Assembly: GCA_049520815.1 (NCBI GenBank)
Contig: JBEKPL010000001.1
Span: forward strand, 2,847-66,846
Direction: 5' to 3'
DNA: 64,000 bases
Source of the DNA: Candidatus Limnocylindrales bacterium
GTDB taxonomy: Bacteria; Chloroflexota; Limnocylindria; Limnocylindrales; CSP1-4
Shown here: positions 7,229-45,983 of the stretch, one piece after another
Position numbering within the stretch: the first letter of the stretch is position 1
Layout of the letters: the number at the start of each line of letters is the position of its first letter
The notes under the pieces: model-generated
The model's database searches: none
What the model saw: the letters and a program-made list of their open reading frames with translations, nothing else
What the model was told of the DNA's origin: nothing
Position numbers and translations under genes: made by a program

Positions 7229-9211
7229 TCAGGCCTCGCGTCGGTAGGGCGAGTCCAGGACCACGAATTCCTTGCGCCCCACCAGCGCCGCGCGGATGCG
7301 ATGCACGTTCTGGTTGTACAGCATGCGGTCCCACCAGTGGCGCGGCAGGTGCTCGGGCAGCAGCACGACGGTGACACGGCCCGGGTCCTCGGCCTGCGAA
7401 ACCTCCAGGTACCGCACGAACGGCCGGACGAGGGCTCGGTAGGGCGACTCCACGAGCACCACCCGGACGCCCGGCAGCTGGCGCTCTAGGCGCTCGCGGA
7501 ACCGCTCGCCTTCGATCGGGTCGATCGTGACGTGAACAACCTGGACTTCTTCGCCCATCGTCTCACCGACCTTGACGGCCTGGACCACGGCCCGGCTCAT
7601 GGCCTGAGCCGCGACCACGACCCGCTGGCGGCGGTGCGGCGGTCCGAACACCAGGTCCGGCTGGACCTCTAGGCCGATCTCCTCCTGGTCGTACTCGTGC
7701 TTGATGAAAAGCATCAGCAGAACCAGGATCGGGACGACGATGATGATGATCCACGCACCCTCTGTGAATTTGGTGGTGATCTGGACGACGACTACGACTG
7801 CAGTAACGCAGGCACCGACCCCGTTGATGAGAGCGCTGCGACGCCAGCCCGGTCCCCGCTCCTTGAACCAGTGGCGGACCATGCCGGACTGCGACAGGGT
7901 GAACGAGGAGAACACGCCGATCGCGTAGAGCGGGATCAGGCTGTTGACGTTGCCCTGGAAGGCGACTACGAGGGCGATCGAAACGCCCGCCAGGACGATA
8001 ATCCCGGAGTTGAAGGCGAGTCGCTCCCCCCGTAAGGCGAACTGACGTGGGAAGAAGCCATCGCGAGAGAGGATTGAGGAGAGGCGAGGGAAGTCGGCGA
8101 ATGACGTCTGCGCCGCCAGCACCAGGATCCCCATCGTTGAGAAGATGAGAACGTAGTAAAGCGGGCTGCGGCCCCAGAAGACCGCCGCGCCGATCTGGCT
8201 GAGGATCGAGTCGCCGGTCGCGGAGGGATGCGCTCCGGTCACCCCAACCAGGAAGCTCATGCCCAGGAACATCGTGCCGAGCAGTGCCGCCATGGCGAGC
8301 ATGGTCTTCTGAGCGTTCTTCCACTCGGGGGGCTTGAAGGCCGGCACGCCGTTGGCGACCGCCTCGGTTCCGGTCATGGCCGAGCAGCCGTCCGCAAAGG
8401 CGCGGCATAGGAGGAAGACCGTCAGGCTCTGGCCCATCCCGGGCAACATCGCCTCCAACGGCGCTCGCGGCGTGTCGCCCAAGAGAATGCGGACGATCCC
8501 CAACCCGATCATCAGAAGCATGCTGCCCAGGAAGATGTAGGTGGGGCTGGCGAAGACCGTCCCGCTTTCGCGCAGGCCGCGTAGGTTGACCGCCATCACC
8601 AGCATGATGAAGGCGACGATGATCTGGACCTTGTAAGGGTCGAGAACGGTGAGAGCCGAGGCCAGGTTGTAGACGCCAGACGAGACGCTCACCGCGACAG
8701 TCAGGACGTAGTCGACCAGGAGCGACGACGCGGCGATGAGCCCGGGCAGCACGCCCAGGTTGGTGTGAGCAACGATGTAGCTGCCTCCGCCGTTGGGATA
8801 GGCGCGGATTGTCTGACGGTAGCTGAATGTGACCAGGAGCAGCAGACCAACGATGAGGAATGAGATCGGCATCAGGTAGCCATACGCGCTCGCACCGACA
8901 ACCGCGAGCGTAAACAGGCTCGCCTCGGCGGCGTAGGCAACCGACGACATCACGTCCGAGGAGAAGACCGGCAGGGCCTTCCACTTCGGCAGCCGCTCCG
9001 TCAGGTCCGCAGCAGAGGACAGCGGGCTGCCGAAAAGGAGAGCGCTGATCCTGGCCCGGCGCCTGCCCCACTCGGTCCGCGGGGCCTGGGCCTCCAGCTT
9101 GGCTTCGAGGACCCCGGGGGCGATGTATCGGAAGTAGCGGGCGTGGGGACGGTCGACTACGACGCGGCGGTCGCCAAGCTTGCGGCCCCGAAGGGACCGT
9201 TGTTCAGCCAT
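7229..9211 (-). CDS. APC-superfamily permease with cytoplasmic C-terminal domain (KimA/YdaO-like; putative K+ or amino-acid transporter)
   Basis: The 660-aa product has 12 TM helices plus a ~150-aa soluble C-terminal domain. An N-terminal FSSDVMSSVAYAAEA motif is recalled from KimA-type APC transporters. It is divergent from the kdp sensor-kinase gene. Confidence 0.7.
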   Translation of the reverse strand: MAEQRSLRGRKLGDRRVVVDRPHARYFRYIAPGVLEAKLEAQAPRTEWGRRRARISALLFGSPLSSAADLTERLPKWKALPVFSSDVMSSVAYAAEASLFTLAVVGASAYGYLMPISFLIVGLLLLVTFSYRQTIRAYPNGGGSYIVAHTNLGVLPGLIAASSLLVDYVLTVAVSVSSGVYNLASALTVLDPYKVQIIVAFIMLVMAVNLRGLRESGTVFASPTYIFLGSMLLMIGLGIVRILLGDTPRAPLEAMLPGMGQSLTVFLLCRAFADGCSAMTGTEAVANGVPAFKPPEWKNAQKTMLAMAALLGTMFLGMSFLVGVTGAHPSATGDSILSQIGAAVFWGRSPLYYVLIFSTMGILVLAAQTSFADFPRLSSILSRDGFFPRQFALRGERLAFNSGIIVLAGVSIALVVAFQGNVNSLIPLYAIGVFSSFTLSQSGMVRHWFKERGPGWRRSALINGVGACVTAVVVVVQITTKFTEGAWIIIIVVPILVLLMLFIKHEYDQEEIGLEVQPDLVFGPPHRRQRVVVAAQAMSRAVVQAVKVGETMGEEVQVVHVTIDPIEGERFRERLERQLPGVRVVLVESPYRALVRPFVRYLEVSQAEDPGRVTVVLLPEHLPRHWWDRMLYNQNVHRIRAALVGRKEFVVLDSPYRREA

Positions 9212-9364
9212 CGGCGGTGGATTCCCTCGCGATCACGATGTCGACCTTACCACCGGGCCGGACGACGGTGGGACTCCCGGCGGCGTCGCGGCGCTCAACA
9301 TCCGCTCAACACACCGCGAGGCATCACGAAGCATTCCGGCTGCCACGGGGCTACGATCGTGGCG

Positions 9365-10957
9365 ATGCATCTCGTGCTTCCGGGACCCGCGCCGGGTCGA
9401 TCCCACGCAGCGCGCGTCGCAGTCCTGAGCCTGGCCGCCCTGGCCGTGGCCACGATCGCGATCGCCCTGCTGCGGGCGGCGACCCACGTCACCTACCCCG
9501 CCCCGGTGTACCTGCTGGCCGTGCTCGCCGTCGGCATGCGGTATGGAACGGTGCCGGCGATGCTGACTTCCGTCGGCGCCTTCCTCCTGTACGACTTCCT
9601 GTTCGTCGAGCCTCTCTACGCCCTGACCATCCGCAACCCGGACGAGTGGCTGAACCTGCTCCTGCTCCTTGCGGTGGCCGCGGTCATCGGCCGCCTGGTC
9701 GCGCTCCAGACCGAGCGGGCCAGCGAGGCCGCAGACCGGGCCCGCGAGGCCGAGGCATTGCATGCCGTCACCGAGGTCCTGGCCGCCACCCGGACGGTAG
9801 ACGAGGCAGCGCCTGCGGTGGTCTCCCGGCTGGAGCGGCTGACGGCGATGGATCGGGTCTGGTTCAGCCTTGGCGCCACGCCGACGGACGAGCGCGTGCT
9901 CGCCGACACGGACCCGAATGCCCCGCTGCCGGTTCCCGGCTGGCAGGTGGTGCTGCAGCGCGGGCCGGATGGGCAGACGCGGTGGGCCCGCACCCACGTG
10001 GGCCTCGGCGCCGCCTGGCGCGCCCCTCGGGCCGCTCTTCACCGGGTCCGCGTCGAGGTCGCCGGCGAGAACCTGGGATCGATCTGGGCCCTCCGTGCCC
10101 GCGGCGAGCGCGAACCGGACCGGGCCGAGACGCGCGTGCTATCCGCCGCCGCCGACCAGCTGGGCCAGGCCGTGGTCCGAGACCGGCTCGCCCGCGAGGC
10201 GACCACCGCGGAGATCGCACGGGAGAGCGAAGCCCTCAAGACCGCCCTCCTGGACTCCGTTTCCCACGACCTGCGCACGCCCCTGGCCACGATCCGGGCT
10301 GCCGCCGGCAGCATGCTCGATCCACAGGTCGCCTGGTCGGCTGAGGAGCAGCGCGATGCCTTCCGGGCCATCGATTCGGAGGCCGAACGAATGGGCCGGC
10401 TGGTCCGCAACCTCCTCGACCTCAGCCGGATCGAAGGCGGAGCCCTCCAGCCGGAGCTCGAGCCGTGCGATCTCGACGACCTGGTGCCCCAGGTGGCCAG
10501 GCGCGCCGCCGGCGCCACGACCAAGCAGGTGCGCGTGGAGCTGCCCGACTCGCTGCCGCCGGTGCTGGCCGATGAGTTGTACCTGAACCAGGTACTGGCC
10601 AACCTGCTGGAGAACGCCATTCGCCACGGCGGCGACACGATCCGCGTGCGGGGCGCCCATCGGCCGGACGGGCTGGTCGAGATCAGCGTCGAGGACGACG
10701 GACCGGGCGTGCCCGCTTCCGCCCTGCCGCACCTGTTCGAGAAGTTCTACCAGGCCGGGCCCCCCGGCGAGAGCAAGAGACGCGGCATGGGCATCGGCAT
10801 GACCGTGGTCGAGGGCCTGACGCGGGCCATGCGCGGCGAGGTCTCAGCGAGCCGCAGCGAATTCGGCGGCTTGCGTGTGGACGTGCGGCTGCACCCCGCG
10901 CTCGTGCCGGACGACGCCGCCGGGCCGACGACGGCGACCGAGAAGGCCACGCCATGA
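9365..10957 (+). CDS. KdpD C-terminal-type sensor histidine kinase (DUF4118 TM domain + GAF-like + HisKA + HATPase); lacks the KdpD N-terminal/Usp domains
   Basis: The LLYDFLFVEPLY segment marks the KdpD TM domain. The H-box is SHDLRTPLATI. The GMGIGMTVVEGL segment marks the HATPase G2 box. The first ATG after the divergent permease is at 9365 (MHLVLPG…). The stop overlaps the kdpE start (ATGA). Confidence 0.8.
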   Translation: MHLVLPGPAPGRSHAARVAVLSLAALAVATIAIALLRAATHVTYPAPVYLLAVLAVGMRYGTVPAMLTSVGAFLLYDFLFVEPLYALTIRNPDEWLNLLLLLAVAAVIGRLVALQTERASEAADRAREAEALHAVTEVLAATRTVDEAAPAVVSRLERLTAMDRVWFSLGATPTDERVLADTDPNAPLPVPGWQVVLQRGPDGQTRWARTHVGLGAAWRAPRAALHRVRVEVAGENLGSIWALRARGEREPDRAETRVLSAAADQLGQAVVRDRLAREATTAEIARESEALKTALLDSVSHDLRTPLATIRAAAGSMLDPQVAWSAEEQRDAFRAIDSEAERMGRLVRNLLDLSRIEGGALQPELEPCDLDDLVPQVARRAAGATTKQVRVELPDSLPPVLADELYLNQVLANLLENAIRHGGDTIRVRGAHRPDGLVEISVEDDGPGVPASALPHLFEKFYQAGPPGESKRRGMGIGMTVVEGLTRAMRGEVSASRSEFGGLRVDVRLHPALVPDDAAGPTTATEKATP

Positions 10958-11694
10958 GCGGTCCCGCGCTGCTGATCGTCGAAGACGAGGAACCCGCTCG
11001 TCGCGCCCTGACCGACTACCTGGAGCGTCGCGGCTATGAGGTCTACGAGGCGGCGACGGCTCTGGAGGCGATGCGCCAGTGGGACGCCCACCGCGCCGAT
11101 CTGGTCCTGCTCGACCTGGGCCTGCCCGACCTCGACGGAGTGGACGTCATCCGGCGTATCCGTCGCGAGGCCACCACGCCGATCATCATCCTGTCCGCCC
11201 GCGGCGACGAGCGCGACAAGATCTCCGGCCTGGAGGCCGGCGCGGACGACTACCTGACGAAGCCCTTCGCCACCGACGAGTTGAACGCCCGAATCCGGGC
11301 CGTCCTCCGGCGGGCCGGCGGTCCCGATGCCGACGCCGGGGGCTGCCTGAGGCTCGGCCCGATCGAGCTCGATGCGGTGCGCTGGGAGGTCCGCGTTTCG
11401 GGCGAGCTGGTACGCCTCACGCCCCGCGAGTACGAGTTGCTCAAGGTCATGTTGTCAAATCAGGGCCGCCTCCTTACCAAGGCCCGGCTGCTGCGCGCGG
11501 TCTGGGGCCTGGCCTACGCCGACGAGAGCGCCTACCTCCACGTCTACGTGAATCGGCTCCGCCGCAAGCTCTCGGCCGCGGCACCGGCCACTTCGCTGGA
11601 GGGCCTGATCGAGACGGAGCCCGGCATCGGCTACCGCATCGCCGACCACGAGTCGCTGGGCGAGTTGCCGCCATCAGGTGCGGTGGCGCGGTGA
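10954..11694 (+). CDS. kdpE: OmpR-family response regulator KdpE
   Basis: It has a receiver domain (LLIVEDEE…DLVLLDLGLPDLDG) and a winged-helix domain (LTPREYELLKV…YLHVYVNRLRRKL). It is translationally coupled to the upstream kinase. Confidence 0.85.
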   Translation: MSGPALLIVEDEEPARRALTDYLERRGYEVYEAATALEAMRQWDAHRADLVLLDLGLPDLDGVDVIRRIRREATTPIIILSARGDERDKISGLEAGADDYLTKPFATDELNARIRAVLRRAGGPDADAGGCLRLGPIELDAVRWEVRVSGELVRLTPREYELLKVMLSNQGRLLTKARLLRAVWGLAYADESAYLHVYVNRLRRKLSAAAPATSLEGLIETEPGIGYRIADHESLGELPPSGAVAR

Positions 11695-11847
11695 GATCAG
11701 GGGCTCAAGTCCCCTTGGGGGCACCCAGCCTGTGCAGGTTCGAGCGGCGGGACTACCTCGCGACCACCTGGGCCCGCGGCAGCCAGCCGAGCGACCGACC
11801 CGGGCTAGCCACGCGGATCGGTCGCCCTGGCGTGCGTTCCGGCCGAT

Positions 11848-11871
11848 TCGTTTAGACCGCGTTTAGCGATC
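11848..11871 (+). promoter_or_regulatory. direct repeat CGTTTAG-N5-CGTTTAG upstream of the hypothetical/CheY/kdpFABC genes (candidate response-regulator box)
   Basis: CGTTTAG occurs at 11848 and 11860 with a 12-nt period. The 14-mer TAGACCGCGTTTAG (11854-11867) is identical to 44651-44664. Confidence 0.25.
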
Positions 11872-11923
11872 TGGTCCCATCGGACACCGGCCGCCTCTTG
11901 GGGGGCCGGGCAATCCTTGTGAC

Positions 11924-12193
11924 ATGGAACGCCACGCCGCCCGCGAGAATGCGGCTCTCGACCCGGAGGAGACCCGGCGCCGGCTGACCTCGGAGGTCGC
12001 CGAGGTCGAGAGCGCCATGGCTCTCGTGGCGTCGGGCTCGGCCACGCGCATCACCCTTGCCGGCCTGAGGTTCGGCGGGCAGCTAGCGGAGCGCTTCTCC
12101 GCGATCGCCCGGTTGAAGGGCCTGCGCCTCGAACCGCTGCCCTGGCCCGACGACTCGGGCTGCGACCTGGTCGTGCGGAGGAGCGATGAATAG
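11924..12193 (+). CDS. hypothetical protein (89 aa)
   Basis: The ORF has GC-typical codon use. Its 3' end overlaps the start of the following receiver gene by 8 nt. No family was recognised. Confidence 0.35.
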   Translation: MERHAARENAALDPEETRRRLTSEVAEVESAMALVASGSATRITLAGLRFGGQLAERFSAIARLKGLRLEPLPWPDDSGCDLVVRRSDE

Positions 12194-12611
12194 CGGGATG
12201 CTCTCGGCCCGAGTCTTGCTGATCGAGGACGATCTCGACCTGGCCGGCATCGTCGTCCGCCATCTGCGGGCGCGCGGCCACGACGCGCGTCTAGCCTCCT
12301 CCGCCGAGGACGCCGAAGACCAGCTCCGGGCGGGCTTTCGCCCGACCGTCGTCCTGCTGGACATCAACCTGCCGGGCGCCTCCGGCTGGGACCTCCTCCG
12401 CTCCGACCGGCTGCGCGCCGCCGGATCACCCGCGGTCTACGTCGTCAGCGCCACGTCCGTGCCGCCGGCTCGCCTGCGCGAATTCGACGTCGCGGGCTTC
12501 CTGCCCAAGCCGTTCGCCCTGCCGACCCTGATCGAGATCGTCGAGCGCGCAGGTCGTGAAGCCCCGGACGGCGGGGGATCCAGCTCACCGGAGGATACCG
12601 ATGCCTTCTGA
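12186..12611 (+). CDS. stand-alone CheY-like receiver-domain protein
   Basis: The sequence VLLIEDDLDLAGIV…VVLLDINLPGASGWDLL…FLPKPF is a receiver fold with no output domain. It is inserted between kdpE and kdpF. Confidence 0.7.
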   Translation: MNSGMLSARVLLIEDDLDLAGIVVRHLRARGHDARLASSAEDAEDQLRAGFRPTVVLLDINLPGASGWDLLRSDRLRAAGSPAVYVVSATSVPPARLREFDVAGFLPKPFALPTLIEIVERAGREAPDGGGSSSPEDTDAF

Positions 12612-12693
12612 CTTCGCGTTCGTCGTTCTGATCCTGGCCGGTGGCCTCTTCTTCGGGGGCTTCATCTGGCTGTGCGACAGGTTGGCCCGATGA
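12601..12693 (+). CDS. small hydrophobic peptide (30 aa), possible second KdpF-like peptide
   Basis: The peptide is MPSDFAFVVLILAGGLFFGGFIWLCDRLAR, a single TM helix. Its ATG overlaps the receiver-gene stop. Its TGA overlaps the kdpF ATG (ATGA). Confidence 0.25.
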   Translation: MPSDFAFVVLILAGGLFFGGFIWLCDRLAR

Positions 12694-12779
12694 ACGTCCA
12701 GGACCTCCTCGGCGGCCTGATCGCCCTCTTCGTGGGCCTCTATCTGCTCTTCAGCCTCCTTCGCGCGGAAAGGTTCTAG
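12690..12779 (+). CDS. kdpF: K+-transporting ATPase subunit F
   Basis: The 29-aa peptide is MNVQDLLGGLIALFVGLYLLFSLLRAERF. It ends in the KdpF-typical …L(R/P)(A/E)E(K/R)F. The kdpA ATG follows immediately at 12780. Confidence 0.6.
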   Translation: MNVQDLLGGLIALFVGLYLLFSLLRAERF

Positions 12780-14504
12780 ATGATCCCCTCCGTTCCCGGG
12801 CTGATCCAGGCCTTCGTTCTCTTCGCTGCCGCAATCCTGCTGGCGCGGCCGCTGGGCGGGTACATGCGCAAGGTCATGGAGGGCGAGCGCACCTTCCTGT
12901 GGCCCGTGCTGCGGCCGGTGGAGCGCGGCATCTACCGCCTGATGCGCGTGGACGAGACGCAGGAGCAGCGTTGGACCGCCTACGCGGTCTCGGTGATCGT
13001 CTTCTCTCTCGTCTGCATCCTGGCCCTCTACCTCCAGCAGCGGCTGCAGGGATCCTTGCCCCTGAATCAGGCAGGAATGGGCCCCGTCTCGCCGGACCTC
13101 GCCTACAACACGTCGGTCTCCTTCGACACCAACACCAACTGGCAGAACTACGCCGGCGAGACGACGATGACGTTACTGACCCAGATGGCCGGGCTGGCGG
13201 TCCGCAACTTCGTCTCGGCGGCCACCGGCATCGCCATCGCCATCGCCCTGACGCGCGGCCTGGTCCGGCACTCGTCGAAGACGATCGGCAACTTCTGGGT
13301 CGACCTCACCCGCGGCACGCTCTACATCCTGCTGCCGATATCGTTCGTGGCCGCGCTCTTCCTGGTCTCGCAGGGCGTCGTCCAGACCTTCGCCGCATCG
13401 ATCGACGCGACCACGCTGCAGGGCACGCACCAGTCGATCCTGACCGGGCCGATCGCCTCGCAGGAGGCGATCAAGGAGCTGGGCACCAACGGCGGCGGCT
13501 TCTTCAACGCCAACTCGGCGCACCCCTTCGAGAACCCGACAGCGCTCTCGAACTGGTTCGAGATGCTGCTGATCCTGATCATTCCGTTCGCCCTGACGAA
13601 CACGTTCGGCCGGATGGCCGGCGACGCGCGCCAGGGCTGGGCGTTGCTCGCGGTCATGGTCATCGTGCTGAGCGTCGGCGCCTTCGTCGCCATGGGTAGC
13701 GAGGAGCGATCCAACCCCTCCATCCCTGCCGCGGTCGCCCAGAACATCGATCAGTCCGCCGGGAACATGGAGGGCAAGGAGACTCGCTTCGGGCCCGACA
13801 CCAGCGGCCTCTTCGCCACGGTCACGACCGGCACGAGTACCGGCGCTGTCGACTCCATGCACGACAGCTTCCTGCCCGTCGGCGGCCTGGTGCCGCTCTT
13901 CAACATCGAGCTGGGTGAGATCGTCCCGGGCGGCGTCGGGGCCGGCCTGTACGGCATCCTCATCTTCGCCATCCTGGCCGTCTTCATCGCCGGGCTCATG
14001 GTTGGCCGCACGCCCGAATACCTGGGCAAGAAGATCGAGGCCTACGAGATGAAGATGGCGATGCTCGTCGTCCTTTCTCTGGCCTTCAGCATCCTGGTCT
14101 TCACCGCGATAGCCACGGCCACACCCGCGGGGAAGGCGGGGCCGCTGAACGGCGGCCCGCACGGCTTCAGCGAGATCCTGTACGCCTACTCGAGCCAGAC
14201 CGGCAACAACGGCTCCGCATTCGCCGGGCTCGCCGGCAACACGCTCTTCTACAACGTGACCGGCGCATTCGCGATGCTGATCGGGCGGTACGCCATGATC
14301 GTGCCGATCCTGGCCATCGCCGGCTCGCTGGCCGCCAAACGGCGCGTGGCGCCGTCCCTTGGCACCTTCCCCACCACCGGCCCGATCTGGATCGGCCTGC
14401 TGATCGGCGTGATCGTCATCGTCGGCGCGTTGACCTTCTTCCCCGCCCTGGCGCTCGGCCCGATCGTCGACCAGCTGCTCAACAACGCCGGGAGGCTGTT
14501 CTGA
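12780..14504 (+). CDS. kdpA: K+-transporting ATPase subunit A
   Basis: The 574-aa multi-TM protein has an [16 protein letters not shown]… N-terminus and selectivity-filter-like [18 protein letters not shown], both typical of KdpA. Confidence 0.95.
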
Positions 14505-16738
14505 TGGCCGTCGAGATCGCCGGCGGCCTCCGCCGCGGACTCATCTCGCCGTCTGTGGTCGACACCGCTCGCGGGACCCGCCGCGTCGCCCGCGAGGAGC
14601 GCCAGGCTCGGGCCGGCGGCGCCTCCGGCGGTCCGCGCCAGCGCGGGATCTTCGAACCCGCGCTGCTCCGCGGAGCGCTCGGGCCGGCCGTCCGCAAGAT
14701 GAGCCCGCGTCAGCTCGCCAAGAACCCGGTCATGTTCGTGGTCGAGGTGGCGGCCGCTCTGGTGACCCTCGTCCTCGTCTCGGACTTCCTGGGGCTGAGC
14801 ACGGCCGCCCCGGGCGAGGTCGGCCGATCGGTCGGCTTCGAGCTGCAGATCGCGATCTGGCTGTGGTTCACCGTCTACTTCGCCACGTTCGCCGAGGCCC
14901 TGGCCGAGGCGCGCGGCAAAGCCCAGGCGGCCAGCCTGCGCAAGACGCGATCGGAGACGCTGGCCCACCGCCGCCTGCCCGACGGCACCCTCGAGGACGT
15001 GGGCTCGTCGGCGCTTTGCTCCGGCGACATCGTCGTGGTGCGCGATGGCGAGACGATCCCCGGAGACGGTGACGTCATCGAAGGCGTGGCCTACGTCAAC
15101 GAGGCGGTCATCACCGGCGAGTCCGCCCCCGTTCTCAAGGAGCCGGGCACGGACATCCGCAGCACGGTCACGGGCGGGACCACTCTTGTCAGCGACACGC
15201 TGACGGTGCGCATCACCGCCAACCCTGGCGAGACCTTCCTCGACCGAATGATCGCCCTGGTGGAGGGCGCCAAGCGGCAGCGGACGCCGAACGAGATTGC
15301 CCTCTCGATCCTGCTATCCGGATTGACCCTGGTCTTCCTGCTCGCCACGGCGACCCTGCGGCCCTTCGGCTTGTACGCCGGCGCCCCGCTGGGGATCGTG
15401 GTCCTGGTGGCGCTGCTGGTCTGCCTGATCCCGACGACGATCGGCGGGCTGCTCTCGGCCATCGGCATCGCGGGCATGGATCGAGTGGCCCGCTTCAACG
15501 TCCTGGCCATGAGCGGCCGGGCCGTGGAAGCGGCCGGGGACGTGGACGTGATCCTGCTCGACAAGACGGGCACGATCACCTACGGCAACAGGCTCGCGTC
15601 GCGGATCGTGCCCCTCCCCGGAGTGACGGAGAGGGAGGCCGTGGAGGCGGCCCTGCTCACGTCGCTGGCCGACGACACGCCCGAAGGACGCTCCATCGTG
15701 GAGCTGGCGCGCCGCCGCCTCGAGGAGCTCGGGGAGCGCAAGAAGCCCAGGGTCGCGCGATCGACCGTCGCGCCGGCCGGACCCGTCGTCGGGAAGCCAC
15801 CCTCGGTGGCCGAGGTGATCCCCTTCTCCGCCGAGTCGCGGACGAGTGGCGTGATCCTGGCCGACGGCACGGTCGTGCTTAAGGGCGCCGTGGACGCCAT
15901 TCGAGCGGCGCTGGATGGCGAGATCCCCCCTGAGTTGGCGACCCTCTCCGACGAGATCGCGGGGCTCGGCGCAACGCCACTGGCGATCCGGCGCGACGGC
16001 CGCGCCCTGGGAGTGATCGAGCTCAAGGACACCGTCAAGCCGGGCCTGCGCCAGCGCTTCGACGAGCTGCGCCGCATGGGCATCCGGACCGTCATGGTCA
16101 CGGGCGACAACCCGCTGACGGCACGCACGATCGCGGAAGAGGCGGGCGTGGACGATTTCATGGCCCAGGCCAAGCCCGAGGACAAGATCGCCCGCATTCG
16201 GGCCGAGCAGGCCGCAGGCCACCTGGTGGCCATGACCGGGGACGGCACCAACGACGCGCCCGCGGTCGCCCAGGCGGACGTAGGCCTGGCCATGAACAGC
16301 GGCACGTCCGCATGCAAGGAGGCCGCCAACATGGTCGACCTCGACTCCGACCCTACCAAACTGATCGAAGTTGTCGCCATCGGCAAGCAGCTGCTGATCA
16401 CTCGCGGCGCCATCACCACCTTCTCCATCGCCAACGACGTGGCCAAGTACTTCGCCATCCTGCCGGCGATGTTCGCGGTGGCCTACCCGGCCCTGAATCA
16501 GCTCAACGTCATGGGCCTGGCGAACCCCCAGAGCGCGATCCTGTCGGCGGTCGTCTTCAACGCCCTGGTCATCATCGCCCTGGTCCCGCTCTCGCTGCGA
16601 GGCGTCGCCTACCGGGCAGCTCCCGCAGCCGAGCTGCTGCGGCGCAACCTGCTCATCTACGGCGTCGGCGGCATGGTCGCCCCCTTCCTGGGAATCAAGG
16701 CGATCGACCTCCTCATCACCGCCGTGCACCTGGCCTAG
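14504..16738 (+). CDS. kdpB: K+-transporting ATPase subunit B (P-type ATPase)
   Basis: It has DKTGTIT (phosphorylation site) and [17 protein letters not shown] (hinge). The start overlaps the kdpA stop. Confidence 0.95.
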
Positions 16739-16747
16739 GAGTCATCG

Positions 16748-17326
16748 ATGCGAAGCTTCCTTCGAACCCAGATCTGGCCCGCGGTGGCGGTTCTGCTGGC
16801 GCTGACGATCGTCACCGGCTTCATCTACCCAGCCGTCGTCACTGCCGTCGCGCAGGTGGCCTTTCCATCGCAGGCGAATGGCTCCCAGATCGTGGCCAAC
16901 GGCAAGACCGTGGGCTCCGCCTTGATCGGCCAGACCTTCGACGATCCGAAGTACCTCTGGGGCCGGCCATCGGCTGCCGGCGCCGGCTACGACCCCACGC
17001 TCTCGGGGGGCTCGAACCTTGGGCCGACCTCGCAGGCGCTGATCGACCAGATCAGTAAGCGGGTCGACGCCCTGCGGGCCGCCAATGGTAGCGCACCGAT
17101 CCCGATCGACCTGGTGACAGCCTCGGCGTCTGGGCTTGATCCGGACATCAGCCCCGCGGCCGCCGAGTACCAGATCCCTCGAGTGGCCAGGGCCCGCGGG
17201 ATCAGCGAGGACGCGGTTCGCGCGGTGGTCGCCAGACACACGTCGCAGCCGCTGTTGTGGTTCCTGGGCGAACCGACCGTCAACGTCCTGGCGGTGAACC
17301 TGGACCTGGACGGACTCCTCCGATGA
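16748..17326 (+). CDS. kdpC: K+-transporting ATPase subunit C
   Basis: It encodes 192 aa with an N-terminal TM helix and SASGLDPDISPAAA, which is KdpC-typical. Confidence 0.9.
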   Translation: MRSFLRTQIWPAVAVLLALTIVTGFIYPAVVTAVAQVAFPSQANGSQIVANGKTVGSALIGQTFDDPKYLWGRPSAAGAGYDPTLSGGSNLGPTSQALIDQISKRVDALRAANGSAPIPIDLVTASASGLDPDISPAAAEYQIPRVARARGISEDAVRAVVARHTSQPLLWFLGEPTVNVLAVNLDLDGLLR

Positions 17327-17354
17327 AGTCCACACTCAGACCGGGAGGCCCACG

Positions 17355-18509
17355 ATGACCCACACCGATCTCGAGCCCAAGCGGCCGACCGGCGACGAGA
17401 TGCTCGCCCGCCTGCAGGCCGAGGAGCATCAGGGCCGCGGCCGCCTCCGCATCTACATGGGAATGGCCCCGGGCGTGGGCAAGACCTTCTCGATGCTGGA
17501 AGAGGCGCACCGCCGCCACGACCGGGGGACGGACGTGGTGGTTGGCTTCGTCGAGACGTACGGGCGCCGCCACACGGCCGCGCTGCTGGACGGGCTCGAG
17601 GCCGTGCCTCGCCGCCGGATCGAGTATCGCGGTGTGGTCGTCGAAGAGATGGACACCGACGCGGTGATCGCCCGCCATCCCGCCGAGGCGCTGGTGGACG
17701 AGCTGGCCCACACCAACGCCCCGGGCTCTCCCCGCGAGAAGCGCTGGCAGGACGTGGAGGCCATCCGCGACGCCGGCATCGACGTCATCAGCACCTGCAA
17801 CGTCCAGCACGTCATATCGGTCGCGGACGCCGTCGAGACGATCCTGGGCGTGCCCGTCCGCGAGCGGGTGCCCGACGAGGAGGTCCGGTCCGCCGAGGAG
17901 ATCGAGCTTGTCGACATGAGCCCGCACGCGCTGCGGCAGCGGATGCGCCACGGCAACGTCTACCCGCCCGATAGGGCCGCGATTGCGCTGGAGCGCTTCT
18001 TCACCGAGCCGAACCTGATGGCCCTGCGAGACCTGAGCCTGCGGTTCGTAGCCGGTCAGGTGGACCAGGAGCTAGAGGGGATCGTGGCACGCCAGGGTCT
18101 CGGGCTGCCATCGGTCGCCGAGCGGGTCATGGCCGTTGTCGACGAGTCGCCGGGATGCCGGCGCGGGCTGCGTCGCGCCTCCTCGCTCGCCAGCGTCTTG
18201 CGGGCGCCCTGGATCGCGGTGGCCGTCGAGACGCCAGCAGTGCAGCAGTCGCGCGACCGCCGGCAGAACCTGCAGGCCAACGTGGACTACGCGACGGATC
18301 TGGGCGCCGAGATCATCCGGGGCGAAGCATCGGATCTGGGCAGAGGGTTGGCGGAGGTCGCCCGTGACCGTCGCATCAGCCACGTCGTCCTGGTTCACCG
18401 GCCCCATCGCGGGCTCGGCCTGGGTCGTCCCTCGCTCGCGGACCGCCTCCTGGACGAGATCCCGGGGCTGGAGATCCACCTTGTCGGCGAGCCGGTGAGC
18501 AACCGATAG
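17355..18509 (+). CDS. kdpD: KdpD N-terminal sensor domain + universal stress protein (Usp) domain, stand-alone (no TM or kinase domain)
   Basis: The sequence RGRLRIYMGMAPGVGKTFSMLEEA (Walker A) …DVISTCNVQH… is typical of the KdpD N-terminal (PF02702-type) domain. The C-terminal half is Usp-like. The protein is 384 aa and ends before any TM segment. Confidence 0.85.
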   Translation: MTHTDLEPKRPTGDEMLARLQAEEHQGRGRLRIYMGMAPGVGKTFSMLEEAHRRHDRGTDVVVGFVETYGRRHTAALLDGLEAVPRRRIEYRGVVVEEMDTDAVIARHPAEALVDELAHTNAPGSPREKRWQDVEAIRDAGIDVISTCNVQHVISVADAVETILGVPVRERVPDEEVRSAEEIELVDMSPHALRQRMRHGNVYPPDRAAIALERFFTEPNLMALRDLSLRFVAGQVDQELEGIVARQGLGLPSVAERVMAVVDESPGCRRGLRRASSLASVLRAPWIAVAVETPAVQQSRDRRQNLQANVDYATDLGAEIIRGEASDLGRGLAEVARDRRISHVVLVHRPHRGLGLGRPSLADRLLDEIPGLEIHLVGEPVSNR

Positions 18510-18525
18510 CCGCCCGAAGCACTCC

Positions 18526-19230
18526 TCACTCCGCGACGACGCGGTACCCCACCCCCGGCTCGGCGACGATGAGCTTGGCCGCGGCGCCGGACGGATCTGC
18601 GGCGGCGAGCTTGCGGCGCAGGCGGCTGACGTAGACGTGGAGGTAGTGGCCCTCGTCCGAGTAGGCGGTACCCCAGACCGCACGGAGGAGCCGGCCCGCC
18701 GTCACGACGCGCCCGGGCTGCGAGAGCAGCACTTTGAGCAGCTCGAACTCGCGCGGGGTCAGCTCCACCGGGGTCTCCCCCACCCTGACCTCGTGGTGCG
18801 GCACGTCCAGCACCACCGGTCCGAGCCGCAGTCGGCCCTCCGTATCCGCACCAGGCCCGGCCGCCCGGCGTAGCAGCGCCCGCATTCGGGCGTGCAGCTC
18901 CGATAGCCCGAACGGCTTGGTCAGGTAGTCGTCGGCGCCGGCATCGAGGGCCGCCACTCGATCCTCCTCCCGGCCGCGGGCCGAAACCACGATGATCGGT
19001 GTGGTGGCCTCGCGGCGAACACGCCGGATGACGGCCTGGCCGTCGAAATCGGGCAAGCCCAGGTCGAGCAGGATCAGGTCCGGCCGGCGGATGTCCCAGA
19101 GGCGGAGCGCCTCGCGCACGTCGCCGGCCTCGTCTACCTCGTGGCCCCGAGCCCGGAGGTTGGTGGCGATCGCGGCCCTGGCCGCCTCGTCGTCCTCGAC
19201 GATCAGGACGACGGCCGCCCCGTCGCTCAC
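18526..19230 (-). CDS. OmpR-family response regulator, KdpE paralog
   Basis: This is the C-terminal 234 aa of ORF 18526..20214 (VSDGAAVVLIVEDDEAARA…YLHVYVSRLRRKL). The GTG start overlaps the upstream kinase stop (GTGA). Confidence 0.8.
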   Translation of the reverse strand: MSDGAAVVLIVEDDEAARAAIATNLRARGHEVDEAGDVREALRLWDIRRPDLILLDLGLPDFDGQAVIRRVRREATTPIIVVSARGREEDRVAALDAGADDYLTKPFGLSELHARMRALLRRAAGPGADTEGRLRLGPVVLDVPHHEVRVGETPVELTPREFELLKVLLSQPGRVVTAGRLLRAVWGTAYSDEGHYLHVYVSRLRRKLAAADPSGAAAKLIVAEPGVGYRVVAE

Positions 19231-20990
19231 GCCAGAGGTCCCGGAGACGGAGCGGCGTCGGCCGGCCGGGCCGGTTCGACTGCGGGTTCGACCGACCCGA
19301 CGGGTTCGACCGACCCGACGGGTTCGACCGCCCCTCCGGCCGCGTCCTCGACCGCCGGCTCGACGGCCCGTTCGGCTGGCTCGGCGTCCTCCGCGGGCAA
19401 CCGGACGACCACCGCCAGCCCACCGAGCGAGCTCTGTCTTGCGTCGGCAGAACCGCCCATCGCCTCCGCCAGGCCGCGAACCACAGCCAGCCCGATCCCC
19501 GAGCCGCCCTCTACTCGCGAACCCTGGCGCCGCGGCGCGCGATAGAACCGTTCGAAGAGATGCGGCAACGCAGCTGCGGGGACTCCCGGCCCGGCATCTT
19601 CGACCACGAGATCGACGCGACCCACCCGGGCCTGGCGTGCCGAGACTCGGATTCGGCGTCCCGCAGCATACCTGGCCGCATTCTCGAGCAGGTTGGTCAG
19701 GATCTGGTCCACGAACATCCCATCGGCCCGGACGGCCGGCAGGTTCTGCGCGACCGCGACCTCCAGGTCGGAGGGTGCCAGCATCGGCCGTATTCGCTCG
19801 ACGACCGGCTCGATGATGTCGGCCAGGTCGTACAGCTCCAGCGACGGATGCAGCGCACCGCCTTCGATGCGACCGAGGTCGAGCATGTTGCGGACCAGCC
19901 GGCTCAGCCGCTCCGCCTCCCGGTCGATCGAACCGGCGGTTACGCGCGTCGCCTCCTGGGTCACCGCCACGTCCGGATCCATCAGTATCCCGGCCGCTGC
20001 CCGGATCGCCGCCAGTGGCGTACGAAGGTCGTGAGAGACGGAGTCGAGCAGGGCCGACTTGAGCGCATCGCTCTGGCGTGCCACCTCGGCTGCCGTGGCT
20101 TCGGCCGCCAGCCTGTCGCGAATGACCGACTGGCCGAGCTGGTCGGCGGCCGCGGCCAGAAGCCGAGTGTGCGAGCGCCCCGGGAACGGATCCTCTCGAT
20201 GTCGGGTCGCCCACAGCGAACCGATCGTCTCGCCGCCGGCTTCGATTGGGATGCGGAAGACCGTCACCGGCTCATCGCCTTCGCGGGCCGCCTTGCGCCG
20301 GGCCTCGCGCTGATCGACCGCGCGATCACCGGCCCGGCCGATCGCCGGCTCGCGCACGCGGGACCAGCTGGGCTGGGCGTCGGCCGAGTGCGAGTGGAGC
20401 AACCATCTCGAGGTGACCGGCGGCCGGGGCTCGCCCGCCACGCTGTCGGCCACGACTCGCTCTTCCGGGATCGCGGCGCCCAGGCCGATCCAGACCCGTG
20501 CCATCTCGGCCTCGCGCGCCAGGCGCGCGGCCAGAAGCGGTGCAGCCTCGAGGGCCGTAGCCGCCGTGGCGATGTCGCGGCTCATGGCGAACATAGCCCG
20601 CGCCTCGGCGCTGCGAAGCTCCGCCTCCCGGCGCCGCCGGAGCTGCAGCGCGCTCAGCCGCCCGATGACGGTAGCTACCACCAGGAAGAGCAGCAGATCG
20701 AGCCACTCCTCCGGCGCCGCCATCGCGAACGTGTGCAGCGGCTGGACGAAGAAGAAGTCGTACAGCAGGAACGAGATCACAGCAGTGGCCACGGCCAGCC
20801 AGCTGCCGTAGCCCATACCGACGGCCAAGACCGGCAGCAGATAGACGATCGAGGCATGCTGCACGCCCAGCGGGCCGTGGACCACCGCCGCGAGGGCCGT
20901 AGCGGAAGCCAGGCCCAGGCCGGCCACGATCAGCCCGGCCGTCGACGGCCGGCGCGGTCGCAAGATCGAGAAACGCGGGCGACTCAGCAC
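19227..20990 (-). CDS. KdpD C-terminal-type sensor histidine kinase paralog with repetitive acidic C-terminal tail
   Basis: The LLYDFFFVQPLH TM domain, SHDLRTPLAAI and a HATPase domain are present. The C-terminus carries EPVGSVEPVGSVEP repeats. Confidence 0.8.
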   Translation of the reverse strand: MLSRPRFSILRPRRPSTAGLIVAGLGLASATALAAVVHGPLGVQHASIVYLLPVLAVGMGYGSWLAVATAVISFLLYDFFFVQPLHTFAMAAPEEWLDLLLFLVVATVIGRLSALQLRRRREAELRSAEARAMFAMSRDIATAATALEAAPLLAARLAREAEMARVWIGLGAAIPEERVVADSVAGEPRPPVTSRWLLHSHSADAQPSWSRVREPAIGRAGDRAVDQREARRKAAREGDEPVTVFRIPIEAGGETIGSLWATRHREDPFPGRSHTRLLAAAADQLGQSVIRDRLAAEATAAEVARQSDALKSALLDSVSHDLRTPLAAIRAAAGILMDPDVAVTQEATRVTAGSIDREAERLSRLVRNMLDLGRIEGGALHPSLELYDLADIIEPVVERIRPMLAPSDLEVAVAQNLPAVRADGMFVDQILTNLLENAARYAAGRRIRVSARQARVGRVDLVVEDAGPGVPAAALPHLFERFYRAPRRQGSRVEGGSGIGLAVVRGLAEAMGGSADARQSSLGGLAVVVRLPAEDAEPAERAVEPAVEDAAGGAVEPVGSVEPVGSVEPAVEPARPADAAPSPGPLA

Positions 20991-21163
20991 GTGCCCATGG
21001 TAGGCCGCGGAGTGACTTGCGGCTCGCGCCGCGACTCACTCGAGCTCTCGGCCGCCTCGCGGCCTATCGGCCCCCTCGCAATCCATCGCCAGTCTCGCGG
21101 CTCCTGGCGTCCGCTCACCTGCGCTCCCACCGGACCCCGGGCTCGGCCGCCTAGAATACGGCC

Positions 21164-22537
21164 GTGGTGCAGGGGCTTCTCTCGTTCGTTGCCGCTGGGC
21201 GCGGCTGGCTCGCGAACCTGGCGAGCCTTCGGTGGGCACGGTCGGGCGGTTGGGACCTGGCCGTCCCCGCGGCCATGGTCCTGGTGGTCGGGTATGCCGT
21301 GCCCCAGCTCGGACGGGACATGGCCGGAGTTCCGTTCTGGCTGGCGTGGCTCCTCGTCACAACCGCGGCAGTCGTCGGTATGCGGACCTTGCGCCACACG
21401 GACCGCGCCGCCACGGGCACCGCAAGCGCAGCCGCTCGCTCCGGCCGGACCGCACCCGGCGGCCGTGAGTTCGCGCTTCGCCATCTGACGACCCTCCAGC
21501 TGGCGCTCGTCGCGCAGGTGGTCGTCGCCTGGGTTCTGTACGACATCCTGCTGTGGCAGCCGGCAGGCCACCTCTACGACCTTAACGTCTACCTCGGAGC
21601 GTCCGAACGCTGGATGAACGGCGGGCAGGCCTACCTGACCGCGACCCTGACGGCGTGGCCCGCCGGCGCCCGCGCCGACTTCTTCCTCTACCCGCCGCCG
21701 CTGCTGCCGGTCTTCGCCTTGCTGTCGCAGTGGCCGGCTGCGCCCGTAGCCGCCGGCTGGACTGCGTTCCAGCTGGTCTGCTGGTACCGGGCATTTCGGA
21801 TTCTCGGACTGGCGCCGAGCCTGAGTCTGCTTCTTCTGACATTCCCGCCGGTGATGATCGGCCTCGAATCGGGCAACATCGCCGGTCTGACATTCCTCCT
21901 GTTCGTTGCCGCGGTCAGAGCCGGCGGGGCGTTGATCGTCGACGGGATCTTCAAGGTTCAGAGCGGCATCCCGGCACTGTGGCTGCTGCGCCAGCGGCGC
22001 TGGCGCGGGCTGCTGGCTGGAACCGCGGTCATCTTCGCCATCGTCCTCATGACGCTGCCGCTGGTCGGAGTCGACGCCTGGCGGGCATGGTGGGCCGGGC
22101 TGGGCTACCGCGCCTCGTCGCAGGCCGTTGCCGATGCGCTCTACGGCTACTCCTACGCAAGGGTGCTCCCGGCCCCGGCGTGGGTGGCCGCCTGCGCGGC
22201 CCTGACGGTCGTCGCGCTCGCGTTCCGAGGCCGGCGCGGGCTCGCCGCCCTGGGCCTGGCCTCGATATTCGCGTCTCCCGCGCTGTGGCCCCACGGCTTC
22301 GTGTTCGCGATGCCGGCGGTGCTGATGCTGGAGAGCGGCACCGCCATGTGGCTGGTCCTCGGAGCCAGCGCCTTCGGCCCCAACATGTGGCTGCTCTTCG
22401 GGGGCGGCTGGCTAGCCATTCTGGCAGCCCGGCGATCCCCGGCCGGACCGCTCCATCCGCTCACCGGTACGGACGGCCCGTGGCCCGGCCCCATCGAGCC
22501 GCAGGCCCATTCCACACCGGAGTCACCGCGAAGATGA
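21164..22537 (+). CDS. DUF2029/GT87-like polytopic membrane protein (putative glycosyltransferase)
   Basis: The 457-aa protein has 10 or more TM helices. Its composition is typical of DUF2029-type mannosyltransferase-like proteins. It is divergent from the second kinase gene. Confidence 0.55.
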   Translation: MVQGLLSFVAAGRGWLANLASLRWARSGGWDLAVPAAMVLVVGYAVPQLGRDMAGVPFWLAWLLVTTAAVVGMRTLRHTDRAATGTASAAARSGRTAPGGREFALRHLTTLQLALVAQVVVAWVLYDILLWQPAGHLYDLNVYLGASERWMNGGQAYLTATLTAWPAGARADFFLYPPPLLPVFALLSQWPAAPVAAGWTAFQLVCWYRAFRILGLAPSLSLLLLTFPPVMIGLESGNIAGLTFLLFVAAVRAGGALIVDGIFKVQSGIPALWLLRQRRWRGLLAGTAVIFAIVLMTLPLVGVDAWRAWWAGLGYRASSQAVADALYGYSYARVLPAPAWVAACAALTVVALAFRGRRGLAALGLASIFASPALWPHGFVFAMPAVLMLESGTAMWLVLGASAFGPNMWLLFGGGWLAILAARRSPAGPLHPLTGTDGPWPGPIEPQAHSTPESPRR

Positions 22538-36133: not shown

Positions 36134-36168
36134 CCGATCCTCTCTCCACTGACAACGCAGCTCGACAG

Positions 36169-38619: not shown

Positions 38620-38719
38620 GACTCTCCTATGATTCGAACTGCGGCCCGCCGTCCTCGGCGCGCCCGTCCACCGACGTCCCGATCGTCGGAAACATCGCCT
38701 GGAGGCTCCAGAGCGTAGC

Positions 38720-39685
38720 TCAGGCGACCTGGCGAACCTTCTCGCTCTCCAGCTCGAAGCAGCCTACGAAATGGTCGTCTTCCAGCTGTACCAGCGTCGG
38801 CTCGTCGGCCGGGCGCTCCGGCATTCGGCCGGCCAGAGGATACATGTCGTGGAAGGGGCAGCCACTGATGCCGGCGACTGGCGCTCCCAGCTCCTCCTCG
38901 ATCTGCGCCCACTTCTTGTGAAGCTGCGGCACGGACGAGACGAGCAGCCGCGTGTACGGGTGGCTGGGGTGGCCGAAGACCTTGTCGGTGGCGCCCATCT
39001 CCACGACCGCGCCGCGGCGCAGGATGACTGTCTTCTCGCTTATGTAGTTCCCGAGCGACAGGTCGTGGGTGATGAAGAGAATGCCCATGCCGCGCGACTT
39101 GAGATCGGCCAGCAGGTTCAGGACGTCGATCCGGGTGGAGGCGTCGAGCATGCTGATGATCTCGTCCGCAACGAGGATCTTCAGATCCAGCAGTAGCGCC
39201 CGGGCCACCAGCAGTCGCTGCAGCTGCCCACCGCTCAGCTGGTGGGGGTACTTGTTGAGCACCTGGCCGGGATCGAGCGATACGCCGCGGAGCGCCGCCT
39301 CCAGTTTGCCGGTCCATTCTGAGGAGGGCATCCCAGAGTAGTACTCGGTGCGGATCAGTGAGAAGACCCGGTCGGCCTTGAAGATCGGGTTGTACGAGCT
39401 GAATGGGTCCTGAAACACGCCCTGGACGTGGCGGTAGTAGGACTTGACCCCACTGCCGTGGACTCGAGAGATGTCCTCGCCGTCGAGGGTGATGGTGCCG
39501 CGGCTGATATCGATGAGCTTCAGGATCATCTTGCCCACGGTCGTCTTGCCGCTACCGCTCTCACCGATAAGCGAGACGACCTCGCCGGTCATGACGTCGA
39601 AACTGACATCGCGGACCGCGAGCAGGTCCTTCCCGCCGAAGGTGCCGATCTTGTATGACTTGGAGACTCGATCGAGACTAAGCAT
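38720..39685 (-). CDS. Opp/Dpp-type ABC transporter ATP-binding protein (OppF-like)
   Basis: The Walker A motif is GESGSGKTT and the signature is LSGGQLQRL. The ORF extends to 39730, but the Met at 39685 avoids a 53-nt overlap with the upstream gene. Confidence 0.8.
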   Translation of the reverse strand: MLSLDRVSKSYKIGTFGGKDLLAVRDVSFDVMTGEVVSLIGESGSGKTTVGKMILKLIDISRGTITLDGEDISRVHGSGVKSYYRHVQGVFQDPFSSYNPIFKADRVFSLIRTEYYSGMPSSEWTGKLEAALRGVSLDPGQVLNKYPHQLSGGQLQRLLVARALLLDLKILVADEIISMLDASTRIDVLNLLADLKSRGMGILFITHDLSLGNYISEKTVILRRGAVVEMGATDKVFGHPSHPYTRLLVSSVPQLHKKWAQIEEELGAPVAGISGCPFHDMYPLAGRMPERPADEPTLVQLEDDHFVGCFELESEKVRQVA

Positions 39686-40640: not shown

Positions 40641-40642
40641 GG

Positions 40643-42570: not shown

Positions 42571-42680
42571 GCGATCTCCCGTTCGCGGATCCTGCGATCA
42601 GACGTTCGCGGATCCCGCAATCAGAGAATTGCCCCTCCCCCCGGGGGTTGAGACGGGGGGAGGGGCACCGTTGCTAACGG

Positions 42681-44495: not shown

Positions 44496-44650
44496 CCCTT
44501 TCCTCCTTCCCCATGAGGAGCGCAGGAGCAGCACGCTGGGACCTGACCGAAATCAGGCACGCTGGACGCCCCACATGGCTAAAGCCAGATCACCAACTCC
44601 GTTGGTCGCCCCCGTGACGGGGAGGGCCAGGGCATCGGCGGACACGACAG

Positions 44651-44700
44651 TAGACCGCGTTTAGTAGCCTGTCAATCTAAAACTTTGACTGGTAGTTTAG
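44651..44700. promoter_or_regulatory. AT-rich candidate operator/promoter region between the SBP operon and the LacI gene
   Basis: The inverted repeat is GTCAA-N9-TTGAC. CGTTTAG/AGTTTAG motifs lie at 44657 and 44694, with a third at 44824. The region is unusually AT-rich for this genome. Confidence 0.3.
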
Positions 44701-44834
44701 TACTATGCCTGCGGATTTGCCCTTTCGGACGTGCTTGGACCGGCGATCTGGGTGCGCGCGGCCCTCTCGGACAACGGCAGGAGCCGGTTGACGCGACCAT
44801 TCACCGCTGATAAGGTAAGTAAGCGTTTAGTAGC

Positions 44835-45956: not shown

Positions 45957-45983
45957 CGATCGCCTCTCAACGAAAGGGTCTGC

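Follow-up and report, generated by a model that had tools for sequence, protein, structure and literature searches.

A split KdpD and two kinase/regulator pairs in a potassium island of an uncultured Limnocylindrales bacterium

How is the emergency potassium pump KdpFABC controlled when the N-terminal part of its sensor KdpD is a gene of its own and the kinase part occurs twice? This question is raised by a stretch of 64,000 nucleotides (nt), here called the window, from a Candidatus Limnocylindrales bacterium (Chloroflexota), an uncultured soil organism; its G+C content is about 68-70%. The part from 7.2 to 21 kb is as a whole a potassium island, in which a kdp operon ends with kdpD-N, a stand-alone gene for the KdpD domain and a Usp-like part, and is accompanied by two gene pairs that each encode a KdpD-type histidine kinase (HK1, HK2) and a KdpE-like response regulator (RR1, RR2). 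The initial annotation took the KdpD-N/Usp protein for a diffusible co-sensor of one or both kinases. We favour, with a probability of roughly 0.6, an overall model in which the two activities of KdpD are carried by separate proteins of this island, a soluble serine kinase that would act on the pump and membrane kinases that would act on the regulators.

The stand-alone gene (17355..18509, + strand) is the last gene of the kdp operon and encodes 384 amino acids (aa) with a KdpD domain and a Usp-like part, no transmembrane (TM) segment and no kinase core; the product is predicted to be an atypical serine kinase acting on KdpB. Domains were called with Pfam and NCBIfam, structures were compared by phmmer against PDB, RNAs were sought with Rfam and homologues of the locus with tblastn. 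The KdpD domain (PF02702) covers residues 28-236 at 3.2e-87 (291.8 bits, cutoff 26.1; profile positions 2-210 of 210) and the protein matches the solved KdpD N-domain (PDB 2r8r) at 2.9e-66, which bears out the KdpD-N/Usp module read there by the initial annotation, with a Usp match that is weak. The protein aligns end to end (model positions 3-371 of 373; 311.6 bits) with NF038185, the ‘KdpD-like non-kinase potassium sensor’. Since the curated cutoff of 550 bits is not reached, it is a relative outside the curated ‘exception’ set, and the Limnocylindrales clade sits outside the set for which the model was made. As references we used the full-length 896-aa KdpD of Sinorhizobium and, for the regulators, its adjacent KdpE (S. 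meliloti). On this KdpD, KdpD-N spans residues 1-376, HK1 spans 431-883 and HK2 spans 425-484 and 626-893. Because KdpD-N and either kinase together tile the full-length protein, the locus encodes KdpD in two parts, divided where the membrane domain starts, and has two copies each of the C-terminal half and of KdpE.

The split is not peculiar to this contig. A scan of one genome per species recovered 80 loci that encode a KdpD-N homologue (53-86% identity), nearly all of them from metagenome-assembled genomes (MAGs) of Chloroflexota or Candidatus Limnocylindria/Limnocylindrales. The synteny search that the initial annotation had suggested thus finds the stand-alone KdpD-N recurring across Limnocylindrales loci. 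In the 76 loci with a complete gene it measures 380-401 aa, save two proteins of 441 and 474 aa, and in none of them is it fused to a kinase. Downstream of kdpD-N in the window the + strand encodes no kinase, and the convergent RR2 gene ends 16 nt away. PGAP-style annotation at times labels such stand-alone genes ‘sensor histidine kinase KdpD’.

From gene content, motifs, synteny, the conservation of operator-like boxes and a natural gene fusion described below, we infer activities and partner choices as follows. KdpD-N/Usp would be a soluble atypical serine kinase of the Walker A/B type, co-transcribed with the pump, that phosphorylates the Ser of the KdpB TGES motif and thereby turns the pump off when K+ is sufficient; candidates for its control are cyclic di-AMP (c-di-AMP) acting on the Usp part, as in Deinococcus geothermalis, or a partner protein. 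The membrane kinases, corresponding to the TM/GAF/DHp-CA half of KdpD, would phosphorylate the KdpE-like regulators, and these would bind a direct repeat of 11-bp period, TTKAG-N6-TTKAG, about 58 bp upstream of the operon. The two pairs most likely serve one small K+ regulon with different inputs or at different thresholds; this regulon would comprise the kdp operon and the HK1-RR1/kimA intergenic region, where a second box lies. Two products of the operon head, a stand-alone receiver (REC) and the 89-aa protein encoded by orf89, would be induced together with the pump and provide the same kinases with an additional phospho-acceptor branch, REC most simply serving as a phosphate sink that gives negative feedback.

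Judged from its motifs and from analogy, post-translational shut-off of KdpFABC is the likeliest role of KdpD-N. Firstly, the catalytic motifs, namely Walker A GxAPGVGKT (GMAPGVGKT in the window), Walker B DELAH (VDELAH) and LRQR, are invariant in 77 sequences, i.e., the window and the 76 relatives with a complete gene. Secondly, the proposed target is kept: the P-type ATPase subunit KdpB (14504..16738, +; TIGR01497 at 1e-289) has TGES with the Ser162-equivalent, its ITGESAPV aligning with ITGESAPV of Escherichia coli KdpB, so that both the target Ser and the preceding Glu are present. Thirdly, the N-terminal domain of KdpD has been characterized as an atypical serine kinase whose Walker A/B site phosphorylates KdpB Ser162 (TGES) and turns the pump off at high K+, the isolated KdpD domain being sufficient for this phosphorylation (PMC11018627; Silberberg et al., 2024). 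E. coli KdpB is also a substrate of the short KdpD/Usp protein from D. geothermalis, which c-di-AMP stimulates and K+ does not (PMC11018627). Taken together, invariant catalytic motifs, a conserved target and published biochemistry make pump shut-off the best-supported role. KdpB itself is called at 744 aa, and about 45 N-terminal residues (14504..14640, +) precede the alignment with the E. coli protein (682 aa); they are either a real extension or the result of a start codon called too early.

Several observations weigh against this model, most of them in the Usp part and its supposed ligand. The Usp match is weak (Pfam E 0.009; 17 bits, under the gathering cutoff of 24 bits), the Usp part alone gives no significant phmmer match against PDB, and it is poorly conserved across the 77 sequences; the region is nonetheless colinear with full-length KdpD up to residue 376 and with NF038185 and NF007793 through about position 371. 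After GKT, a Phe stands in place of the adenine-stacking Trp39 of E. coli. The S. aureus c-di-AMP motif SXS-X20-FTAXY was not found in the Usp region, which reads ESPGCRRGLRRASSLASVLRAPWIAVAV and whose region I, WIAVAV, resembles the E. coli-type WxAVY (RXXXR-X8-WXAVY) more. The D. radiodurans orthologue of the c-di-AMP-responsive D. geothermalis protein also lacks SXS-X20-FTAXY, and the motif is therefore no strict requirement for a c-di-AMP response. In the scanned parts of the window there is no diadenylate cyclase (DAC domain) and no ydaO riboswitch, and the Rfam scan of the window gave no K+ or c-di-AMP riboswitch. The K+ transporter KimA is a c-di-AMP target in Bacillus, and the presence of a KimA homologue near kdp is an only suggestive hint of such control. 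To these points can be added that the phosphate-sink role of REC is pure conjecture, and that the boxes and regulators, discussed below, give conflicting clues.

The kinases and regulators have the make-up expected of the other half of KdpD and of KdpE. HK1 (9365..10957, +; 530 aa) consists of DUF4118 (four TM), a linker, HisKA and HATPase_c, and its best NCBIfam match is KdpD; RR1 (10954..11694, +; 246 aa) follows with a start that overlaps the HK1 stop by 4 nt. On the other side of the operon, RR2 (18526..19230, -; 234 aa) is convergent with kdpD-N, and HK2 (19227..20909, -) is called at 560 aa, or 587 aa from a GTG at 20990, with DUF4118, GAF, HisKA and HATPase_c. Pfam detects DUF4118 at 3e-21 in HK1 and 3e-22 in HK2, and GAF weakly (6.8e-4) in HK2 and not in HK1. 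Both regulators belong to the OmpR family and combine Response_reg with Trans_reg_C. The gene positions and domains proposed by the initial annotation agree with the Pfam calls on all genes and with an independent gene caller run on the source contig (ENA ERZ27250059 k141_72831, 106,759 bp), which differs only in starting HK2 at 20909.

The two pairs resemble each other most where signals are passed on. The kinases share 49% identity over 506 aa and the His box SHDLRTPL, and their first DHp helix is nearly the same; the membrane and linker regions diverge much more, and the C-terminus of HK2 is a low-complexity tail with many Pro, Val and Glu residues (…VEPVGSVEPVGSVEPAVEPARPADAAPSPGP; window 19227..19400, -), absent from HK1. 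The regulators are 63% identical to each other and 42-43% identical to S. meliloti KdpE (RR1 43%), have the KdpE-like recognition helix xYLHVYVxRLRRKL in common, and find KdpE as best NCBIfam match, at 190 bits (RR1) and 202 bits (RR2), under the cutoff of 325 bits. A shared DHp helix and differing sensor regions would fit two sensory inputs feeding into overlapping outputs.

The initial annotation had also pointed to two kinase paralogs bracketing one sensor gene. This arrangement is real and recurs: a KdpE-like regulator lies upstream in 52 of the 80 loci and convergent downstream in 26, and both positions are filled in nine (L001, L009, L010, L016, L025, L029, L033, L075 and L077; L numbers denote loci). 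Full flanks are available for 54 loci, of which 37 show an upstream pair alone and 8 a downstream pair alone, absence of a pair being understood within the 10-kb flanks that the searches reached. In neighbour-joining trees HK1/RR1 and HK2/RR2 fall in separate clades (types 1 and 2 below), and a third clade of pairs occurs directly upstream of the operon in more distant Limnocylindrales. Type-1 pairs sit upstream or downstream of the operon depending on the locus, and the distance between a downstream pair and kdpD-N ranges from 16 nt in the window to about 5 kb. The second pair is a duplication within this lineage and a stable trait of a sub-clade; since its position is variable, the bracketing geometry is not conserved and probably not functional in itself.

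A shared regulon is suggested by two repeats that the initial annotation had missed, along with the KimA gene, orf89, the receiver and a small peptide. The 230-bp gap ahead of orf89 contains GTTTAG-ACCGC-GTTTAG (Box A; 11850..11866, +), 58 bp upstream of the orf89 ATG, a candidate KdpE-type operator. GTTGAG-CGGAT-GTTGAG (Box B; 9294..9310, -) lies 55 bp ahead of HK1 and 83 bp ahead of the divergent kimA (7229..9211, -), counted to the start of each gene. The latter gene encodes a KimA-type K+/H+ symporter of the APC superfamily (Pfam AA_permease_2 at 6e-29 and a weak K_trans match; phmmer match to KimA, PDB 6s3k, at 4.3e-135 over residues 55-657); KimA homologues stand beside kdp clusters in many related loci, at times in two copies (L055). 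TTKAG-N6-TTKAG matches the 64 kb window twice, at Box A and Box B, versus 0.05 matches expected by chance. The pattern [GC]TT[TG]AG-N5-[GC]TT[TG]AG has 40 matches in related loci totalling 1.45 Mb, all at K+ genes: 30 just upstream of the orf89/REC-kdp operon, seven in reverse orientation ahead of an HK1-type operon (six immediately ahead, that of L033 about 2.2 kb away) and three upstream of kimA genes; TTGAG boxes precede kimA in L035, L075 and L077. Across 14 close relatives the Box A hexamers are invariant and the 5-nt spacer is variable, and in distant loci a related CTTGAG/GTTGAG repeat takes the position of Box A. Invariant hexamers with variable spacers are the pattern expected of an OmpR/PhoB-family site with half-sites one helical turn apart, which makes the boxes putative regulator sites. 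No TTKAG box was found upstream of HK2, and a scan for sigma-70 promoters and terminators yielded nothing exceeding chance.

Box B was at first thought to be a kimA operator. This idea was given up, as the box keeps its place at the HK1-type operon in loci where another gene stands instead of kimA, and is found in the same orientation upstream of the HK1-type operon in L009, L015, L016, L024 and L029. Box B may therefore serve autoregulation of HK1-RR1, at least as likely as control of kimA.

It is quite possible, though we would not call it probable, that only one pair regulates kdp and that the other has diverged in its job and is nearby only because K+ genes cluster. In the leading version RR2/HK2 would act on kdp through GTTTAG, and HK1/RR1 on itself and/or kimA through GTTGAG; the alternative version is the reverse. 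Box A and Box B differ at one position per half-site and this difference is conserved, and Box B precedes every HK1-type operon with an available upstream region, except in L033. The presence of pairs points the same way in part of the loci. Box A occurs in L003, L004, L006, L011 and L012, where the only pair within reach is of type 2, and in the type-1-only genomes L031, L036 and L068 the kdp promoter carries GTTGAG, not GTTTAG; but L015 and L024 have Box A and no type-2 pair within 10 kb. The recognition helix is changed in the type-1 regulators of two-pair genomes (H to A/S/T; S to N/G), yet type-1 and type-2 helices are nearly identical overall, and L031, with type 1 only, combines an exact type-2 helix with a GTTGAG box. 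Type-2 pairs in L075 and L077 adjoin the TTGAG box ahead of kimA. These last two cases, and the fact that Box B follows type-1 pairs, are also conflicting clues within the model preferred here; assigning regulators to boxes by co-variation of box, recognition helix and pair presence gave no consistent picture. A strict division of labour is further opposed by the first DHp helix, so similar in HK1 and HK2 that cross-phosphorylation is possible.

The co-sensor proposal of the initial annotation concerns KdpD-N itself. The KdpD-N/Usp protein would dock on HK1/HK2 or on the DNA-bound phosphorylated regulator, as co-sensor or scaffold, rebuild KdpD in trans and shift the balance of kinase and phosphatase activity, besides or instead of acting on KdpB. 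The precedent for this is indirect: with KdpD/1-395 as a separate protein in E. coli, phosphorylated KdpE is stabilised at its DNA site and kdpFABC is expressed constitutively, and the cytoplasmic halves of KdpD interact with each other (PMC2714519). In the Limnocylindrales loci, the tiling of full KdpD by KdpD-N and the kinases would suit such an interaction, and kdpD-N always lies within a few kb of a kinase gene of this kind. However, kdpD-N is co-transcribed with the pump genes and with neither kinase, the kinase pairs have no fixed place or orientation relative to it, and what is invariant in the clade are the ATP-binding and catalytic motifs, not the Usp part. Short KdpD/Usp proteins moreover occur mostly in species without KdpE (PMC11018627), which argues that the module needs no kinase partner. 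Nothing in the locus specifically favours a co-sensor; the protein may have this as an additional role, but we regard the proposal as rather unlikely and prefer the serine kinase acting on KdpB.

The kdp operon begins at orf89, not at kdpF. The order is orf89-REC-peptide-kdpFABC-kdpD-N, and all genes from 11924 to 18509 are on the + strand, tightly packed and with overlapping stops and starts. The first gene, orf89 (11924..12193, +), encodes a conserved 89-aa protein that belongs to no known family; an identical NCBI entry, from a Candidatus Limnocylindrales MAG, is a hypothetical protein (locus tag ABSE70_00050). REC (12186..12611, +; 141 aa; Pfam Response_reg at 1.9e-12) starts 8 nt before the end of orf89. 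It is followed by the gene for a hydrophobic peptide of 30 aa (MPSDFAFVVLILAGGLFFGGFIWLCDRLAR; 12601..12693, +) that overlaps the REC stop and the kdpF start, and by kdpF (12690..12779, +; 29 aa, weak match to Potass_KdpF, PF09604), which abuts kdpA (12780..14504, +; PF03814 at 4e-241). Downstream of kdpB, kdpC (16748..17326, +; PF02669 at 5e-75) completes the pump. The peptide has no family match and resembles kdpF in size and layout, with a TM helix and then a basic tail; independent gene calls on three contigs include it, and tblastn recovers it from about 11 of the nearest relatives. Among the 66 loci that cover the region upstream of kdpA, REC is present in 64 and orf89 was detected by tblastn in 48. 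The phospho-acceptor Asp (LLDINLPG) and the Lys (LPKPF) of REC are kept in at least 95% of 67 sequences.

In one relative (P0309; three contigs, L085 3969..4628) orf89 and REC are fused into one 219-aa protein, whose gene has a pair of DUF4118 kinase and OmpR regulator on one side and a KimA-like permease on the other. Such a natural fusion suggests that the two proteins work together, and its placement ties them to the kinase/regulator system and the transporter under its control rather than to KdpD-N specifically. A bolder proposal is that orf89-REC is an undescribed output branch of KdpD-type kinases, always directly ahead of regulated K+ transporter genes (kdpFABC, or a kimA-like gene in L085): the kinase would phosphorylate REC according to K+ status, and REC/orf89 would act post-translationally on the transporter or on KdpD-N. 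If true, this phosphorelay would reconnect K+ sensing with pump inactivation, a link broken by the splitting of KdpD. We consider it doubtful. Searching the literature for kdp operons with a lone receiver gene returned nothing relevant.

Virtually no weight is left for the idea that the stand-alone kdpD-N is an artefact, be it a full-length kdpD disrupted by frameshift, truncation or wrong assembly or a pseudogene in decay, because the stand-alone protein recurs with strongly conserved motifs in 76 independent loci, drawn from many assemblies, the gene after it is convergent and 16 nt away, and the independent Logan contig L082 repeats the orf89-REC-peptide-kdpF head; the frameshift or scaffold join considered by the initial annotation is thereby excluded.

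The remainder of the window holds features beside the potassium island. An open reading frame (ORF) of 436 aa next to HK2 (20984..22294, -) was considered as a gene travelling with this kinase and rejected: it has no Pfam match, and the opposite strand encodes a GT87 glycosyltransferase (21164..22537, +), of which it is an antisense shadow. Its apparent conservation in tblastn is spurious, a caution for ORF-based reading of this high-GC genome. A carbohydrate-use cluster unrelated to kdp (33734..47003) encodes a GH94 phosphorylase, a LacI regulator, a GH130 mannoside phosphorylase and an ABC transporter of the peptide/oligosaccharide type (ATP-binding protein, two permeases and a family 5 solute-binding protein). 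Equally unrelated to kdp is a set of three genes (51348..54646, -) typical of BatA-type aerotolerance operons: a DUF58 gene comes first, then two VWA genes, of which one has a BatA N-terminal domain. An ALIL pseudoknot (57788..57904, -; Rfam, 75 bits), a frameshift element of IS3-family transposases, lies beside a tRNA gene (59390..59462, -), and the two may mark the insertion of a mobile element. Searches of the region against plasmids gave generic kdpA/kdpB similarity only (megablast) and matches dominated by rhizobial full-length KdpD (tblastn).

The split itself is not new, since the class is described in PMC11018627, PMC5716572 and NF038185; its occurrence in Limnocylindrales adds a new phylum and not a new principle. 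New are the duplicated kinase/regulator pair and the conserved orf89-receiver(-peptide) operon head, both in a poorly studied uncultured lineage. They bear on the open question of how a KdpD-N that lacks TM/GAF sensing learns the K+ status of the cell, for which these loci offer a natural system in which the two halves and two kinase paralogs are separable and the receiver and orf89 are strictly co-inherited with the regulated transporter. The conserved TTKAG-N6-TTKAG repeat provides a handle for defining the K+ regulon of an abundant uncultured lineage of soil and peat. The most promising thread is the orf89-receiver module.

Among known systems, the closest is the class described by Silberberg et al. 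(2024), in which ‘KdpD/Usp ASK plus TM/GAF/DHpCA HK’, an atypical serine kinase (ASK) with a separate histidine kinase (HK), is the most common split combination (PMC11018627). Like the window, this class, with D. geothermalis DgKdpD (Q1J2K3), has a stand-alone KdpD + Usp protein of about 370-390 aa encoded after kdpC, with Walker A/B and the KdpB TGES Ser conserved; in the named combination the kinase is, as in the window, a true KdpD C-terminal half with DUF4118. The window differs by its phylum, by having two kinase/regulator pairs instead of one or none, by the orf89-receiver at the operon head and by a KdpD-N without the S. aureus-type c-di-AMP motif.

In D. radiodurans the kdp operon also ends in kdpD-N, with a separate kinase/regulator pair whose regulator is required for kdp induction on K+ limitation (PMC5716572; Dani et al., 2017). 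At this locus on megaplasmid MP1 (DR_B0081-DR_B0088), kdpD-N (365 aa, annotated ‘universal stress protein’) follows kdpC, its KdpD domain is 48% identical to that of the window, and the pair adjoins the operon. The arrangement is nonetheless another one, with divergent regulator and kinase genes followed by kdpB-A-C-kdpD-N, a single pair, and neither orf89 nor a gene for a receiver alone. The kinase is of the HAMP type, has no similarity to DUF4118 and is 30% identical in DHp-CA only. Of the two systems, that of the window comes nearer to a KdpD cut cleanly in half. Cyanobacteria and the Deinococcus-Thermus group are known to have truncated kdpD genes (PMC5716572), and the comparison with the cyanobacterial split made in the initial annotation was correct.

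By description, not by sequence, the cyanobacterial kdp operons of Anabaena and Synechocystis resemble the window in having kdpD-N as last gene and a separate two-component pair. In Synechocystis this pair is Hik20/Rre19, located away from the kdp operon. Cyanobacterial kdp operons contain kdpG and are not known to include a receiver gene. With E. coli KdpD/KdpE the window shares all KdpD domains, tiling the full-length protein, and the regulator helix xYLxxYxxxLRxKL. The window boxes resemble the E. coli KdpE site, two TTTA-containing hexamers with an 11-bp period. However, E. coli KdpD is one polypeptide and its two halves are separate genes in the window, where the within-polypeptide coupling of K+ sensing (TM/GAF) to the serine kinase is lost and something else must replace it.

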